From sequence record PX436236.1: a stretch of DNA of 64,000 nucleotides. The stretch is one strand, 5' to 3'. Positions 1-6,977 of this stretch are shown piece by piece. Origin of the DNA: a phage. A program made the translations under genes and the position numbers. Position 1 is the stretch's first letter. The number at the start of each line of letters is the position of its first letter. The notes below the pieces were generated by a model. That model saw nothing but the letters and a program-made list of their open reading frames with translations, had not been told where the DNA came from and did not search any database.

Positions 1-950
1 AAAGGACGAATTAAATGATGGTTATCTTGGAAACGCTTGATGTAGTCGTTTTCACCTAAAGTCTTATACATATTCACTACAGCTTGGTAGTTTTCCCAGG
101 CGTACTCGCGGAACCAACCTGAAGTGATTGAGGTACACACTTTCTCAAGAGCCATATAAAAACTTAATGATGGTGAAATATTGAAGTCATTAGGAACCTG
201 TGAACGTTCTAGTGCCAGGACACAAGTTTCTTCATATACACCAGCCAGTTTAATAGCTTCAGGCAAAGCCTCGAACTTCTCACGAGAGGTCATGACTTCA
301 GAACCTTCCTTCATATAAAAGGTATATGCAGGGCGTCCAGCCAATGCTACTGCTTCATGAATAGAGTCATGGTCCAGCGTATAAATGGTATCATTAAAGA
401 ACGATGATTTGTTTACGTCCAATTTAGGGTGAGAATAGCTCAACGTTTCTTTTTGACGTTGCAGCATAATTTCCTGGAGTTCTTCGTTAAGGGTGATACC
501 TTTATTACGAAGGTATTTGATGTGTGACATAGTTTTCAAGAAGAACGGATTATTCTTAAGGAAACGATGAGAGGTTTTGATAGCCAGACAGATATCAGGG
601 GTGGCCCAATAGAAACCAGTAAGACGGTCCTTTTTAATATGATTTTCAGCATATTTCAGGAGACGATAGCTTGAAGTGAAATCTTCGTCTTGAAGCTCAC
701 CGGTAATTTCTCGTACGTTAGTCAGAGCACGAACGATATAAGCTTCAAAATAGGTTTCTTTACCATTATGCATACATTTGAAAGCCTGGACATCAGGATT
801 GTCAACGTGTACATGGGCGCCGAACATACGTGCTTTAAAGTGATTCCATGAGCCTTGGTCGGCAATGAAATCCCAATCAGAATTTTCGATATGCTTACTT
901 TCAATCAGACCAGCGTGGTGCAGTGCACGAGAACCAATAACTAACATCAT
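1..950 (-). CDS. hypothetical early protein, partial (first ~316 aa; 3' end lies beyond window start)
   Basis: Uninterrupted minus-strand frame from ATG at 950 (SD GAGGA ~8 nt upstream) to position 1; absent from ORF track because no stop in window. Begins MMLVIGSRALHHAGLIESKH. Translated by eye. Confidence 0.5.
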   Translation of the reverse strand, partial: MMLVIGSRALHHAGLIESKHIENSDWDFIADQGSWNHFKARMFGAHVHVDNPDVQAFKCMHNGKETYFEAYIVRALTNVREITGELQDEDFTSSYRLLKYAENHIKKDRLTGFYWATPDICLAIKTSHRFLKNNPFFLKTMSHIKYLRNKGITLNEELQEIMLQRQKETLSYSHPKLDVNKSSFFNDTIYTLDHDSIHEAVALAGRPAYTFYMKEGSEVMTSREKFEALPEAIKLAGVYEETCVLALERSQVPNDFNISPSLSFYMALEKVCTSITSGWFREYAWENYQAVVNMYKTLGENDYIKRFQDNHHLIRP

Positions 951-969
951 AATATTTTCCTCAGTAAAC

Positions 970-1209
970 TTAAATTTCAGCGACGTAATCGTTATGCAAT
1001 TCCCACATATCATCAGAATTATTCTTAATGATAGGAATTATCTCATTAGAGATTTCTTCAGCATAAGGGTCATTGATACAGTGGGCATCTTCAAAACGAA
1101 CACCGTAATCAGACTTCTTATAAGAGAAGCCATAAATCTTTTTAAACTTGGCGCGAGTAATGCGTACCGGTTCATTAGACTTATCGGACATCGGAGCGTA
1201 ATACCACAT
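970..1209 (-). CDS. hypothetical small protein (79 aa)
   Basis: ATG start with GAGGAG SD; leader is near-identical to the leader of the ORF at 58083-58373. Confidence 0.45.
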   Translation of the reverse strand: MWYYAPMSDKSNEPVRITRAKFKKIYGFSYKKSDYGVRFEDAHCINDPYAEEISNEIIPIIKNNSDDMWELHNDYVAEI

Positions 1210-1252: not shown

Positions 1253-1582
1253 CTAGAGTTGTACATCACTTCTGCAATATTCTAAAAATAATTTATCATT
1301 GTCTACTGTATCCCAACGACGCCAAGACGGGTTCCAGACCAAAGCGTTGTCACCACAATCATTGAGCTTAAAATGGTCGTAGTACATAGCTATGTGTCTA
1401 GTCTCGTCACCAGAGAACCCCAGTATAGGCTCACCGCGGGTGTGATACATATGATGGTGCATTGAGAGGTCGCATTTGTAAAACATCTCACGTTTACCAC
1501 GAACGAACAAGAAGGCCTGTCCATTCATATAGAATTCTTTATTTGTTTTCAAAAGATATTTGAATACTGAATCTTTATGCAT
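1253..1582 (-). CDS. hypothetical protein (~109 aa)
   Basis: ORF-track frame 1253-1603; internal ATG at 1582 (MHKDSVF...) has strong AGGAGG SD and is preferred over ATG at 1603. Confidence 0.5.
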   Translation of the reverse strand: MHKDSVFKYLLKTNKEFYMNGQAFLFVRGKREMFYKCDLSMHHHMYHTRGEPILGFSGDETRHIAMYYDHFKLNDCGDNALVWNPSWRRWDTVDNDKLFLEYCRSDVQL

Positions 1583-1612
1583 AAGTCCTCCTACCACATC
1601 CATGTGGTTAAA

Positions 1613-1840
1613 TTATTTTCCTAACGAAATACGAGTAGGTTTTTTACCGAAATAGTCTTCATAAGAACCATCTAAACGACCTGCTTTAGACCGACAATAT
1701 GAATCGTACTTTTTGTAATAAGTCATCTCAGTATTATAACGCGGGTGTCTATCAGCCATAATAATACTTAACGGCCAACCTTTGGCATAATCGCGAAGAC
1801 CATTTATTTTACGAATGTATCTTTTCTTTAATTTTAGCAT
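1613..1840 (-). CDS. hypothetical small basic protein (75 aa)
   Basis: ATG start overlapping stop of upstream gene; weak SD. Confidence 0.4.
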   Translation of the reverse strand: MLKLKKRYIRKINGLRDYAKGWPLSIIMADRHPRYNTEMTYYKKYDSYCRSKAGRLDGSYEDYFGKKPTRISLGK

Positions 1841-2058
1841 GAGCTCGGATACCAGATTTTACCATCGGCCTGAGCAACGAAGGTGCGACCAGCTTCTTCG
1901 CCATAACACGAGCTATTCAGCCAATCTTCGAGACGAACTTCACCGTCATAATCGTCGAGCTCAACACCAAAACTTTGAGCAGAAGCCATATCTTTTACTT
2001 TCTTATACAGTGCAGCCAGTTCAAGTGCAGCTTTTTCTAATTCATTAATATCAGACAT
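1834..2058 (-). CDS. small acidic protein, member D of C-terminal-Cys paralogue family
   Basis: ATG with AAGGTG SD; ends ...KIWYPSSC. Confidence 0.5.
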   Translation of the reverse strand: MSDINELEKAALELAALYKKVKDMASAQSFGVELDDYDGEVRLEDWLNSSCYGEEAGRTFVAQADGKIWYPSSC

Positions 2059-2069
2059 TTTTTATCACC

Positions 2070-2282
2070 TTAGCAAGACATAGAGGATGTAAACCAGAAA
2101 CCTTCACCTTCCGGAATACCGTAGTCATCACGGACCCATTCGTAATCATCATATTCCGGGTTCTTTGGAGAAATGTATTCTCCACGACCAGAAACACGGA
2201 ACTCTTCACCCGTTTCGTCAGCCACAGACTGGCCTTTACGTACTAATTCACGGATTTGGTTTTCAATTTCATCAATAGTCAT
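2070..2282 (-). CDS. small acidic protein, member C of C-terminal-Cys paralogue family
   Basis: ATG with AAGGAA SD; ends ...GFWFTSSMSC. Confidence 0.5.
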   Translation of the reverse strand: MTIDEIENQIRELVRKGQSVADETGEEFRVSGRGEYISPKNPEYDDYEWVRDDYGIPEGEGFWFTSSMSC

Positions 2283-2291
2283 TTTATTTCC

Positions 2292-2573
2292 TTAACATTC
2301 AGAAGAAGAGGACACCCAACCACCATTTTCTAGGCTGGTAGTGTAATCATGTTGGTTTACAATAGCGTACTGAGCTTCACCGTATTCTTCCCAGTGGGCA
2401 AGGTCGGCTTTCAAGGCGCCAGGAGAATAATAGTCACCGCCCATACCGCGAGCAGGGTATATATTAAAATGAGTCTCATATTTGTTTGCAATTTCCTCGG
2501 CACGACGAATAGCTTTATGGATATCATTTACTGCTTCAGCCAATTCTTTATTTTTATGGTAATCATTCATCAT
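2292..2573 (-). CDS. small acidic protein, member B of C-terminal-Cys paralogue family
   Basis: ATG with AAGGAA SD; ends ...GGWVSSSSEC; clearly related to member A (KY..F...G.YY.PG core). Confidence 0.55.
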   Translation of the reverse strand: MMNDYHKNKELAEAVNDIHKAIRRAEEIANKYETHFNIYPARGMGGDYYSPGALKADLAHWEEYGEAQYAIVNQHDYTTSLENGGWVSSSSEC

Positions 2574-2582
2574 AAAATTTCC

Positions 2583-2873
2583 TTAGCACATTGCCGAAGA
2601 GGAGATCCAAGCACCAACTGTAACGACGCCATTTTCAACTTCACCACCGTTGTTTTCAATTTCATCTTTAAACCACTGGGAGCATTCATAACCGACAGGA
2701 TAATATGTACGGCCTGAACCATAATCACCAGTACCGAATTGGATACCATACTTATCGGCAATAGCTTCACATTCATGTTCGATGGTATTCACTTTATTCA
2801 GAAGAGCATAGATAGCCTTTTCTGCAGATTTCTCATCATTGTGTTCCGGGATTTCAATTTCAATTTTATTCAT
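2583..2873 (-). CDS. small acidic protein, member A of C-terminal-Cys paralogue family
   Basis: ATG with AAGGAA SD; ends ...VGAWISSSAMC. Confidence 0.55.
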   Translation of the reverse strand: MNKIEIEIPEHNDEKSAEKAIYALLNKVNTIEHECEAIADKYGIQFGTGDYGSGRTYYPVGYECSQWFKDEIENNGGEVENGVVTVGAWISSSAMC

Positions 2874-3223
2874 GATTTACATTCCTTAATAAAGGTTTCA
2901 AGGTCATTACGTTTAGTTTGTTTTACATACTCATTATAATTAGCCATAGCTAAAGCATATCTCTTTTTACGTGGCTTGTTTATTTTATTAGTTTGGGCAA
3001 TATCAAAGACCCATGGGATAAAAAATCCTATTAAAGCCGGAACCCAAATCCATGCAAGGCTCATATCTTCAAACGGATGGCGAGGCATACCATTAATAAT
3101 CCCACCGACAAGAAATCCAATTATCCCTGCAGTCATACTAGTAGCAATGCCGAGGAATAAGGAAATAGCTATATCATAATCTGCTAATGCGTAACCAGGG
3201 TCGGTTTTACTAGGCTTATGCAT
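2870..3223 (-). CDS. small membrane protein (two predicted TM helices)
   Basis: ORF-track start at 3259 is TTG; ATG at 3223 (MHKPSK...) has AGAGG SD and abuts upstream stop. Hydrophobic segments GIATSMTAGIIGFLVGGII and LAWIWVPALIGFFIPWVF. Confidence 0.5.
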   Translation of the reverse strand: MHKPSKTDPGYALADYDIAISLFLGIATSMTAGIIGFLVGGIINGMPRHPFEDMSLAWIWVPALIGFFIPWVFDIAQTNKINKPRKKRYALAMANYNEYVKQTKRNDLETFIKECKS

Positions 3224-3752
3224 TTTGAACCTCTTTAGCGTATTCGCGACATTCAGCAATAAAACGATTAAGCTTACGTTGTTGTTTACGACTTTCTAAT
3301 GTGTACTCATTAGCCAAAATAATAAGCTCATCTTTATCGTAATTTTTAATATCAGAGTAAGATGGGCGACGGTCAACCATTCCAAATACATCACCATTTT
3401 CTAAAGCTACATAACATACTAAATGGTAATCATCGTCTGCCATATTAAGAAGCACACAATCAGCGCTCTCGTTTAAAGAATATACCGAATAACGTAGTCC
3501 AGCGAATTCCACTCGTTGAATAGCCAGATTTACGTCAATAATTTCCAAAGCATCTTCAAAAGAAAGGTCTTCAGCTAAAGCAAAAATAAAAGGTAATTTG
3601 GTAGTATCGCCACGGCTAGATGTTCTGCTTAAGAAATCGTTTGAATAGCCTAGGTCTTGGCGAATTCTATAAAGAACTGAATTAGTTTCATGTGAAAGAC
3701 CACTATGCTTAAACCAATCAATATTTGATATCAGGTCGTCATATAAACTCAT
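3216..3752 (-). CDS. hypothetical protein (178 aa)
   Basis: ATG with strong GGAGGAGAGGAG SD. Confidence 0.55.
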   Translation of the reverse strand: MSLYDDLISNIDWFKHSGLSHETNSVLYRIRQDLGYSNDFLSRTSSRGDTTKLPFIFALAEDLSFEDALEIIDVNLAIQRVEFAGLRYSVYSLNESADCVLLNMADDDYHLVCYVALENGDVFGMVDRRPSYSDIKNYDKDELIILANEYTLESRKQQRKLNRFIAECREYAKEVQNA

Positions 3753-4437: not shown

Positions 4438-4467
4438 ATTATACCCTGTCCTCTGAGGTTTGTAAAC
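4438..4467 (-). promoter_or_regulatory. early sigma70-type promoter (GTTTAC -35, TATAAT -10) with overlapping stem-loop
   Basis: Minus strand GTTTAC-N18-TATAAT upstream of 3801-4394; inverted repeat aggaca/tgtcct spans -10. Confidence 0.55.
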
Positions 4468-5910: not shown

Positions 5911-6375
5911 TTATTTGATTTGTTTAGCAGACCAGATACGGTCTTTGATGATTTTCTGAATATCTTCAACATACTCTAAGTCGTGAGCATGTGGATTATC
6001 TTTGAAGCTATGTGCTCGTGCCAGTTTCTGGCCTTCTGTTTTGATTACTAAAAGCTCTTTAAGAATTGCTTCATACTTAGAAATAATTCCTTTGGCGATA
6101 TTTTTTTCTTGAGCGGCTTTAGGGTCCGCTTTTGACGCAGGTGCTTTACCTGTAGCTTTCTGGAACAATTCACCTGATGCAGCTAGGCTTTTAAAAACTC
6201 GGCTAACAGTATTAGCATTAGTAAAACCTTCGGCTTTAAAATCTTTAATAAAACGGAAACGTTCTTCATCAGAGGCGTCTTTGTAAGAATATTTACCTGC
6301 TTGAATTGCTGCAATCGCAGCGGCTTTTACATCTGAACTAGATTGTTCAGTCAAAAATTCATTGTAAGTTTTCAT
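5911..6375 (-). CDS. internal-protein-like (capsid-targeted) protein, 154 aa
   Basis: N-terminus MKTYNEFLTE matches the T4 internal-protein capsid targeting sequence (MKTYQEFIAE, L/I-x-E cleavage motif); late promoter TATAAATA immediately upstream. Confidence 0.6.
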   Translation of the reverse strand: MKTYNEFLTEQSSSDVKAAAIAAIQAGKYSYKDASDEERFRFIKDFKAEGFTNANTVSRVFKSLAASGELFQKATGKAPASKADPKAAQEKNIAKGIISKYEAILKELLVIKTEGQKLARAHSFKDNPHAHDLEYVEDIQKIIKDRIWSAKQIK

Positions 6376-6439: not shown

Positions 6440-6820
6440 TTAACCTAGGGTAACCTTGTCGGGGTTCCACCTGCTAGGCAAGTGTTTGTACGAAACGCCG
6501 GGATTCGAACCCGGTTATTAAGTAGTTGACGCCACTCAATATTTTTAAAAGGCCATATCTCGACCATATCCGAACGTTCCGTCAAAAACGCTACTCGGCT
6601 TACGGCAAAGATATTTCCTCGAATCGATAATTCGGTGCGCCGTTTCTGCTGTGATGTAAGGGGACGTTAACAGATCGTAAAGATTTGTTAATGCCAGTCC
6701 TTACTCAGGGAACATCAGTCCGACGACTTACCGGTAGCGACCCGGTTTCTTGTTTGTTGCGCCGGTGAATGCTGGTAATCAGTCTTCATACGACGGCTTG
6801 ACTATATAATAGTCTTCATT
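6440..6820 (-). other. ORF-free structured region next to tRNAs, with orphan tRNA-like T-arm (6494-6512)
   Basis: No ORF of 60 aa or more; CCGGG/TTCGAAT/CCCGG T-arm-like hairpin and other stem-loops; position analogous to T4 small stable RNAs. Confidence 0.3.
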
Positions 6821-6895
6821 TGGTATCCCGCCCTGGGATCGAACCAGGACCGCAAACTTAGAAGGATCGTATGCTATCCATTACACCAGCGGGAC
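6821..6895 (-). tRNA. tRNA-Arg (anticodon TCT)
   Basis: Cloverleaf folded by hand: 7-bp acceptor stem, T-arm CCTGG/TTCGATC/CCAGG, anticodon loop CTTCTAA, encoded CCA. Confidence 0.75.
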
Positions 6896-6900
6896 GTAGT

Positions 6901-6977
6901 TGGTGACCCAGACCAGATTTGAACTGGTAACCTTTCCCTTATGAGGGGACTGCTGCTAACCATTGAGCTACAGGGCC
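6901..6977 (-). tRNA. tRNA-Met/Ile (anticodon CAT)
   Basis: T-arm ACCAG/TTCAAAT/CTGGT, anticodon loop CTCATAA, encoded CCA; acceptor stem has one T-T mismatch, D-arm atypical. Confidence 0.6.

Follow-up and report, generated by a model that had tools for sequence, protein, structure and literature searches.

The 64,000-nucleotide stretch analysed here in full (sequence record PX436236.1, hereafter the window) belongs to a T4-like phage affiliated to Dhakavirus within the Tevenvirinae. Its minus-strand early region carries, between a block of e.6, e.5-like and e.3-like genes and the gene e.2, four consecutive small open reading frames (ORFs) whose acidic products all terminate in a Ser-rich motif closed by Cys. 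Some 0.9 kb downstream of these genes, designated here paralogues A to D (Table 1), begins a gene, transcribed the same way, that encodes a MenT-like nucleotidyltransferase. The region shares 99.5% identity with Escherichia phage vB_EcoM-E33, 99.4% with WG01 and 92.5% with Bp7, in whose annotation the four genes are EpBp7_0005-0008. A first-pass annotation, made from the sequence alone, had described a diversified tandem family of paralogues in a T4-like early region, and this description is correct, the location being the minus-strand hyperplastic region e.2-e.6; the corresponding part of T4 holds e.2, e.3, e.4, e.5 and e.6, among which nothing resembles the small genes. The coordinates, lengths (96, 93, 70 and 74 amino acids, aa) and C-termini of the four ORFs were likewise confirmed, as were their Shine-Dalgarno sequences, AAGGAA preceding the ATG of A, B and C and AAGGTG that of D. 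The stop after each terminal Cys codon forms part of the TAAGGA or TAAGGT of the next gene.

The four proteins are diverged members of one family, with pairwise identities of 22-30% to the 96-aa member and eight positions that are invariant among them (F46, Y51, W67, G77, W89, S92, S93 and C96 in the numbering of paralogue A). All of them match phrog_899, a family of unknown function, over the whole protein (E 2.8e-23 to 1.4e-9), and a hidden Markov model (HMM) scan of the whole window retrieved these four members only. The ratio of nonsynonymous to synonymous substitution rates (dN/dS), calculated against orthologues from other Dhakavirus, Gaprivervirus and Mosigvirus genomes, ranges over the four from 0.03 to 0.41 (A, 0.04-0.24; B, 0.17-0.41; C, 0.14-0.19; D, 0.03-0.26): all four genes are under purifying selection and encode real proteins. 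The AlphaFold2 model of the 96-aa member is confident, with a predicted local distance difference test score (pLDDT) of 91.3, and displays an acidic alpha/beta domain composed of a long N-terminal helix (residues 14-42), a small sheet, a second helix (66-74), three further strands and a short C-terminal turn, with a Gly/Tyr-rich loop and the conserved Trp in the last beta-strand. The mean pLDDT is 97 for residues 81-90 versus 80 for residues 91-96, the end of the tail being less confidently placed, and no solved structural relative of this model was found. The phrog_899 matches, the aligned invariant residues, the low dN/dS and the confident fold together indicate that the four ORFs are real and not due to chance.

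The feature shared most strictly is the C-terminal tail, which the first-pass annotation had noticed and which reads W-x-[S/T/P]-S-S-(x-x)-Cys in all four proteins. A word-seeded homologue search retrieved 36 clusters, all ending W-x-x-S-S-(x-x)-C, and a profile run exhaustively against 1.84 billion representatives extended the family to at least 396 clusters (50% identity) at E <= 0.001. Conservation of the terminal Cys in homologues had been set beforehand as the test on which the proposal should stand or fall; the residue closes 174 of 184 homologue sequences, and most of the others have one residue beyond it. When 177 of these 184 homologues are aligned on their last Cys, Trp occupies position -7 in 167, Ser position -4 in 169 and position -3 in 163, and Gly position -9 in 111; the spacing from Trp to Cys is 7 in 167 sequences and 5 in eight. 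No further Cys is present in 89 of the 177, and the median isoelectric point (pI) is 4.45. From these homologues we define the family signature as a C-terminal G-x-W-x-S-S-S-x-x-C, the full form of which occurs in A, B and C; the tail of D is two residues shorter, and this protein carries a second, internal copy of the motif (Table 1). The bodies are far more variable than the tail, yet share a block 'IAD..G..F....YG.GG.YYP', to which corresponds the KY..F...G.YY.PG core that had been reported in two members; that pattern is roughly right, the actual sequences being DKYGIQF...RTYYPVG in A and NKYETHF...GDYYSPG in B, the latter with a 'GMGGDYYSPG' loop. The phAPEC8-like phages also possess paralogues of types A, C and D, so that these types are old, and the double-motif type represented by D is found in phAPEC8-like, Pseudomonas and metagenomic phages. 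Longer proteins that could have been natural fusions of the small family with the nucleotidyltransferase turned out to be N-terminal coiled-coil extensions or alternative starts.

The most informative fact about these genes, which the first-pass annotation missed, is their tight two-way linkage to the gene of the MenT-like nucleotidyltransferase. Eighty viral loci anchored on the enzyme gene (38-94% identity to the enzyme) were compared; many are closely related, and about 50, from diverse metagenomes, have an enzyme less than 60% identical to the query. The small-family HMM detected one to six members in 71 of the 80 loci and inspection added four positive loci, so that at least 75 of the 80 possess the family. 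Every HMM match shares the strand of the enzyme, nearly all lie at most 2 kb upstream of its gene, and in metagenomic phages the small genes often adjoin or overlap it. In an all-versus-all clustering of the ORFs of these loci, no gene family other than the small one accompanied the enzyme gene broadly. In the reverse test, four of five arbitrarily chosen distant representatives of the small family adjoin a DUF7275 gene, the fifth contig being too short.

VR7, WFK and PG7 also have the enzyme gene after the small genes, and the pair moves through different genomic contexts: e.2-e.3 in Tevenvirinae, between nrdD and nrdC.2 in Aeromonas phage 25, gp41-gp61 in the T4-like Acinetobacter phage Berthold and DprA-methylase in phAPEC8. 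It also occurs in jumbo phages and in phage-like contigs of metagenome-assembled genomes (MAGs). Among 50,697 deposited phage genome records the enzyme is present in 734, from T4-likes, jumbo phages and actinophages, and a scan of 185,579 species genomes yielded only five loci, all of them on MAG contigs and all with the small genes directly upstream, which makes the module look essentially confined to phages. RB69 has both components, ORF134c being the enzyme and ORF136c-139c the small genes. Its type-A gene is apparently split into the overlapping ORF138c and ORF139c, of 33 aa and 71 aa (locus L101, 11735..12041), which suggests a frameshift or a sequencing error. In T4, both HMMs applied to 1-76 kb and 120-169 kb (about 74% of the genome) detected neither gene; nrdC.3, considered as a T4 homologue owing to its similar size, is not homologous.

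The enzyme gene starts at 947, with an alternative ATG at 950, and its final four or so codons lie beyond the window edge, for a product of about 319 aa. Its Bp7 orthologue matches DUF7277 (E 1.7e-26), DUF7275 (E 2.8e-77) and phrog_2141. Thirty diverse homologues, spanning 44-75% identity to the reference, share the signature h-h-I-G-S-x-A-L, followed 13-17 residues on by D-x-D-[FY]-I and then by an invariant h-E-h, which reads as the catalytic GS, DxD and third carboxylate of the Pol-beta nucleotidyltransferases. Many Lys, His, Asp, Arg and Cys residues of the helical DUF7275 lobe are also invariant among the thirty. The AlphaFold2 model (pLDDT 91.5, predicted template modelling score 0.84) has a nucleotidyltransferase fold and finds its closest structural relatives in the toxins MenT1, MenT3 and MenT4; a profile search of the PDB sequences with the enzyme gave no match, to MenT or otherwise. 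Another group of Pol-beta nucleotidyltransferases, RlaP, is common in large phages and has been proposed to act on RNA ends (PMC7824862). An RlaP identity was rejected for the present enzyme, which has no match to PF10127, the family that defines RlaP (bioRxiv 10.64898/2025.12.29.696909), and belongs to a different Pfam family. RlaP is moreover linked to RNA ligases and the phage enzyme to Cys-tailed small proteins: ORF clustering of the 80 loci revealed no RNA ligase family travelling with the enzyme gene, and a single examined locus, that of Streptomyces phage Annadreamy, has an RNA ligase near it. Several GenBank records name the small proteins or the enzyme 'tail completion protein', 'major capsid protein', 'prohead assembly scaffold protein', 'DNA helicase' or 'baseplate hub subunit', which look like annotation-transfer errors.

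Table 1. Positions in the window of the small-gene array, the nucleotidyltransferase gene and neighbouring features.
Feature	Position	Strand	Description
Paralogue A	2583..2873	minus	ORF, 96 aa, pI 4.4; phrog_899, E 2.8e-23
Tail of paralogue A	2586..2609	minus	G-A-W-I-S-S-S-A-M-C
Paralogue B	2292..2573	minus	ORF, 93 aa, pI 5.0; phrog_899, E 2.4e-20
Tail of paralogue B	2295..2318	minus	G-G-W-V-S-S-S-S-E-C
Paralogue C	2070..2282	minus	ORF, 70 aa, pI 4.2; phrog_899, E 6.2e-14
Tail of paralogue C	2073..2096	minus	G-F-W-F-T-S-S-M-S-C
Paralogue D	1834..2058	minus	ORF, 74 aa, pI 4.2; phrog_899, E 1.4e-9
Internal motif copy of paralogue D	1906..1923 (W..C)	minus	W-L-N-S-S-C-Y-G-E
Terminal tail of paralogue D	1837..1854	minus	W-Y-P-S-S-C (...KIWYPSSC)
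Intervening small ORF	1613..1840	minus	ORF, 75 aa
Intervening small ORF	1253..1603	minus	ORF, 116 aa
Intervening small ORF	970..1209	minus	ORF, 79 aa
Nucleotidyltransferase gene	1..947	minus	DUF7277-DUF7275, phrog_2141; begins MLVIGSRAL...SDWDFI
Candidate early-type promoter	4438..4466	minus	TTTACA-17-TATAAT, upstream of e.6; consensus scan (pattern match)
e.3-like gene	2870..3259	minus	
e.5-like gene	3216..3752	minus	
Likely internal protein	5911..6375	minus	ORF, 154 aa; begins MKTYNEFLTE
tRNA-Arg(tct)	6821..6895	minus	
tRNA-Met(cat)	6901..6977	minus	

The three ORFs that separate the array from the enzyme gene have Bp7 orthologues matching phrog_7065, phrog_9796 and phrog_3723, and the family of the 79-aa ORF was found in only 12 of the 80 enzyme loci; they are lineage-specific and stand outside the conserved pair. 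A consensus scan found no convincing minus-strand terminator between the candidate promoter and the nucleotidyltransferase gene: the sole consensus match there is a weak 5-bp stem within paralogue C, and terminator-like sites number 2 against 3.4 in shuffled sequences. The small genes, the intervening ORFs and the enzyme gene may thus be co-transcribed.

Other features of the region concern its neighbourhood. An identity of the small proteins with T4 internal head proteins was rejected, their N-termini (MNKIEIEIPE, MMNDYHKNKE, MTIDEIENQI and MSDINELEKA) being devoid of an MKTYxEFxxE-type capsid-targeting sequence with an L-x-E cleavage site. Such a beginning, of the type known from T4 internal head proteins, is displayed by the 154-aa ORF of Table 1, whose product is likely an internal protein of the phage. 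The e.3-like and e.5-like proteins share a short C-terminal motif (...ETFIKECKS and ...NRFIAECREYAKEVQNA); T4 e.3 and e.5 end likewise (...EFVIDCRKIK and ...EKFVKECREYV...) and T4 e.4 more loosely (...KFVKESRCKSQS), so that the region has a second C-terminal signature that recurs. The array is preceded, about 4 kb upstream, by the two transfer RNA (tRNA) genes. Of 51 loci outside the Tevenvirinae only 6 have tRNA genes within 6 kb of the cassette, and tRNA-gene synteny is not convincing as support for a tRNA substrate. One phage-like contig binned as Thermosynechococcus (locus L099, 7547..9632) has, about 2 kb downstream of its cassette, a gene resembling a transfer-messenger RNA together with eight tRNA genes.

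Small genes of other kinds were observed beside the enzyme gene in some loci. In the actinophages Annadreamy of Streptomyces (L089, 4630..5322) and Cucurbita of Gordonia (L090, 4600..5357), two paralogous proteins with a 'KTGYY[DN]SWD' / 'NGWYQSYSG' motif are encoded, which may represent an alternative partner family; the idea that they are a diverged branch of the Cys-tailed family was discarded, as hhalign gives a probability of 0.2% and no relation is detectable. In three loci in which no Cys-tailed gene was found (L068, L071 and L085), a 60-aa ORF directly downstream of the enzyme gene (about 6677..6898) contains '..GGWYKSHHT..' and ends '...EEIKCKK', and may be another variant partner. 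In a metagenomic contig (L102, 3510..3752), a protein with a Pfam match to the Acb2/Tad1 hairpin, of the anti-CBASS/anti-Thoeris sponge family, is encoded two genes from the cassette.

The tight two-way linkage argues that the small proteins are one component of an enzyme module and not independent effectors, and we regard it as reasonably likely that the Cys-tailed proteins and the MenT-like Pol-beta nucleotidyltransferase form a conserved two-component phage module, the small proteins probably being protein partners of the enzyme and not free-standing factors. For such a module we infer a physical interaction. A tail of fixed length, S-S-S-x-x-Cys-COOH, projects from the last strand of the small protein; the variable body would give each paralogue its own role, and the invariant tail would be a common handle offered to the catalytic cleft of the enzyme. 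As far as the structural model goes, the variable acidic body, the Trp in the last strand and the fixed-length tail are what would be expected of a handle in a partner's cleft. The chemistry could take two forms. In the one that we tentatively prefer, the tail would be an acceptor, the enzyme nucleotidylylating its invariant Ser-Ser or its Cys and the paralogues being different substrates that one enzyme tags. In a close alternative, possible if doubtful, the tail would be a pseudo-substrate, and the small proteins would be antitoxin-like inhibitors or regulators. The slight preference for the acceptor comes from the recurrence of the paralogue types in T4-like and phAPEC8-like phages and from the duplication of the motif in type D, which would fit distinct proteins bearing one tag. 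A precedent for an acceptor is offered by the HEPN/MNT type VII toxin-antitoxin systems, where the MNT nucleotidyltransferase, in work of 2020 by Songailiene et al. and by Yao et al., reportedly oligo-AMPylates its HEPN partner. These systems resemble the phage module in associating a minimal nucleotidyltransferase with an adjacently encoded partner and in transferring AMP to a side-chain hydroxyl; they differ in that their acceptor is a Tyr on an HEPN RNase, whereas the phage partner has no HEPN features and its candidate acceptors are Ser-Ser or Cys. Two findings on MenT are further precedents for the module: the binding of MenA1 across the active site of MenT1 (PMC10435456), and the ability of MenT active sites to transfer phosphate to protein Ser/Thr, their own residues included (PMC11375011).

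Several observations weigh against the proposed module. Three unrelated ORFs (0.9 kb) intervene between the small genes and the enzyme gene in this phage, in the L102 contig the small gene is downstream of the enzyme gene, and the actinophage homologues of the enzyme have no Cys-tailed family, their different pair of small genes being located downstream. The likeness of the enzyme to MenT exists at the fold level only, with 5-13% identity across the nucleotidyltransferase matches and 7% to MenT1; a Pfam scan of the enzyme returns only PF23942 and PF23940, and no DUF1814. The small-molecule nucleotidyltransferases ANT(2'') and LnuA score nearly as well as the MenT toxins, so that the substrate could belong to another class. 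Finally, conserved synteny could be explained by co-regulation or by a shared pathway without any contact between the products.

Among the other explanations, the one closest to a known system considers the enzyme as a MenT/AbiEii-type toxin, extending for example tRNA 3' ends, and the small proteins as antitoxin-like inhibitors that switch off or time its activity, the acidic proteins binding an electropositive cleft and the Ser-Ser...Cys tail mimicking the tRNA 3' end. Nucleotides are added by MenT toxins to the 3' ends of tRNAs under the control of upstream-encoded partner proteins; one of these, MenA1, a 68-aa helical protein whose gene precedes that of MenT1, lies bound over the active sites (PMC10435456). 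The DUF1814 family to which these toxins belong also includes AbiEii (bioRxiv 10.64898/2026.01.19.700257). The nearest structural relatives of the phage enzyme are the toxins MenT1, MenT3 and MenT4, the small proteins are acidic and MenA1 is likewise small and blocks the active site (PMC10435456); an upstream partner gene on the same strand, as in MenAT, occurs in at least 75 of the 80 loci, often abutting or overlapping in metagenomic phages as antitoxin genes do. The phage enzyme shares the Pol-beta fold with that of MenAT1 of Mycobacterium tuberculosis but is only 7% identical to it, has DUF7277/DUF7275 instead of DUF1814 and is about 120 residues longer, and MenAT1 is found in bacterial chromosomes, whereas the phage module occurs with one to six paralogues in lytic phages, to which the logic of addiction does not apply. 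The small alpha/beta proteins present no detectable similarity to MenA1, which is devoid of an invariant Cys tail, and no fold similarity to AbiEi either. AbiE resembles the module in that its operon consists of two genes, the first of them for the partner, but AbiEi has about 200 aa with winged-helix and kinase-like parts and AbiE serves the defence of the host. For antitoxins, moreover, three to six paralogues of ancient divergence per enzyme would be unusual, a tail far more conserved than the body is the opposite of the usual antitoxin pattern, and unrelated genes intervene in this phage, so that inhibition of this kind, although possible, seems to us questionable.

The remaining explanations appear less probable. 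The small proteins could be specificity adaptors, each tethered by its tail to the enzyme and recruiting by its body a different target (tRNAs, RNAs or host proteins), which would account for a common handle on diversified bodies, for the maintenance of old paralogue types across distant phage groups and for a copy number of 1 to 6 per enzyme gene. Bodies of about 60-85 acidic residues are however unlikely RNA binders, tRNA genes are as scarce near the cassette outside the Tevenvirinae as reported above, and adaptor subunits are not known to us from any MenT-like enzyme; this explanation is thus given a low probability. A similarly low one is attributed to independent effectors merely syntenic with the enzyme, whether host-takeover or anti-defence proteins or nucleotide sponges, whose tail would bind some small ligand or a universally conserved component of the host. 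The proteins share small size, acidity and early expression with many phage inhibitors, their conserved F, Y, Y, W, W, GMGG and SS would suit a nucleotide pocket and one cassette has an Acb2/Tad1-like gene two genes away. This reading does not explain, however, that the family accompanies the enzyme gene in five or more unrelated genomic settings and that both genes are jointly undetected in the scanned regions of T4; and with hosts ranging from enterobacteria to Acinetobacter, Aeromonas and Pseudomonas, only a universal host target would do. The host-takeover or anti-defence role suggested by the first-pass annotation was a generic guess that finds no evidence here: scans of the four proteins against Pfam, NCBIfam and PADLOC gave nothing significant (none above the cut-off for NCBIfam), PADLOC-DB modelling known anti-phage defence proteins, with anti-defence families outside the test. 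A Ser placed three residues before a C-terminal Cys is also the arrangement of the aminovinyl-cysteine ring in epidermin-type peptides, and one enzyme with several precursors resembles the clusters of ribosomally synthesised and post-translationally modified peptides (RiPPs), in which the C-terminal S-x-x-C would be dehydrated and cyclised to a lanthionine or aminovinyl-cysteine-type ring. This idea was rejected as highly improbable because the enzymes that it requires are missing, no dehydratase, cyclase, flavoprotein decarboxylase or radical-SAM (S-adenosylmethionine) family being detected among the neighbours, of which the nucleotidyltransferase is the only conserved one, and because the proteins are confidently folded (pLDDT 91) and not leader-core peptides; the S-x-x-C spacing is furthermore lost in type D, which ends S-S-C.

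The module is uncharacterised but widespread, and its components are already catalogued as phrog_899, phrog_2141 and two Pfam DUFs, to which the genes of the window are assigned by profile matches and whose entries carry no function. The statement that no described family bears this C-terminal signature therefore holds for the literature searched, in which neither the signature nor the linkage of phrog_899 with phrog_2141 was found to be described, and not for the catalogues; literature on phrog_899, phrog_2141, DUF7275, DUF7277, the RB69 ORF names and phage MenT-like enzymes contained nothing relevant. The finding is real and more interesting than first stated, for a different reason: the module is strongly conserved, yet its small component lacks a Pfam family, and the linkage of that component to the enzyme makes four hypothetical proteins part of a two-component system open to test, for which RB69 (ORF134c-139c) offers a genetic handle and T4, apparently without the module, a background for transplants. 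Its study could uncover either a new tag for protein nucleotidylylation or the means by which lytic phages regulate a nucleotidyltransferase that modifies tRNA/RNA. The boldest form of the preferred acceptor mechanism, a protein-tagging system in which the enzyme would nucleotidylylate, or polymerise nucleotides on, the Ser-Ser...Cys tails of a set of small acidic proteins, is rather unlikely; if true, it would produce protein-nucleotide conjugates, for example mimics of tRNA ends or nucleic acids, serving as decoys or effectors in infection, and would represent a previously unknown class of viral post-translational modification pathway with G-W-x-S-S-S-x-x-C as the acceptor tag.

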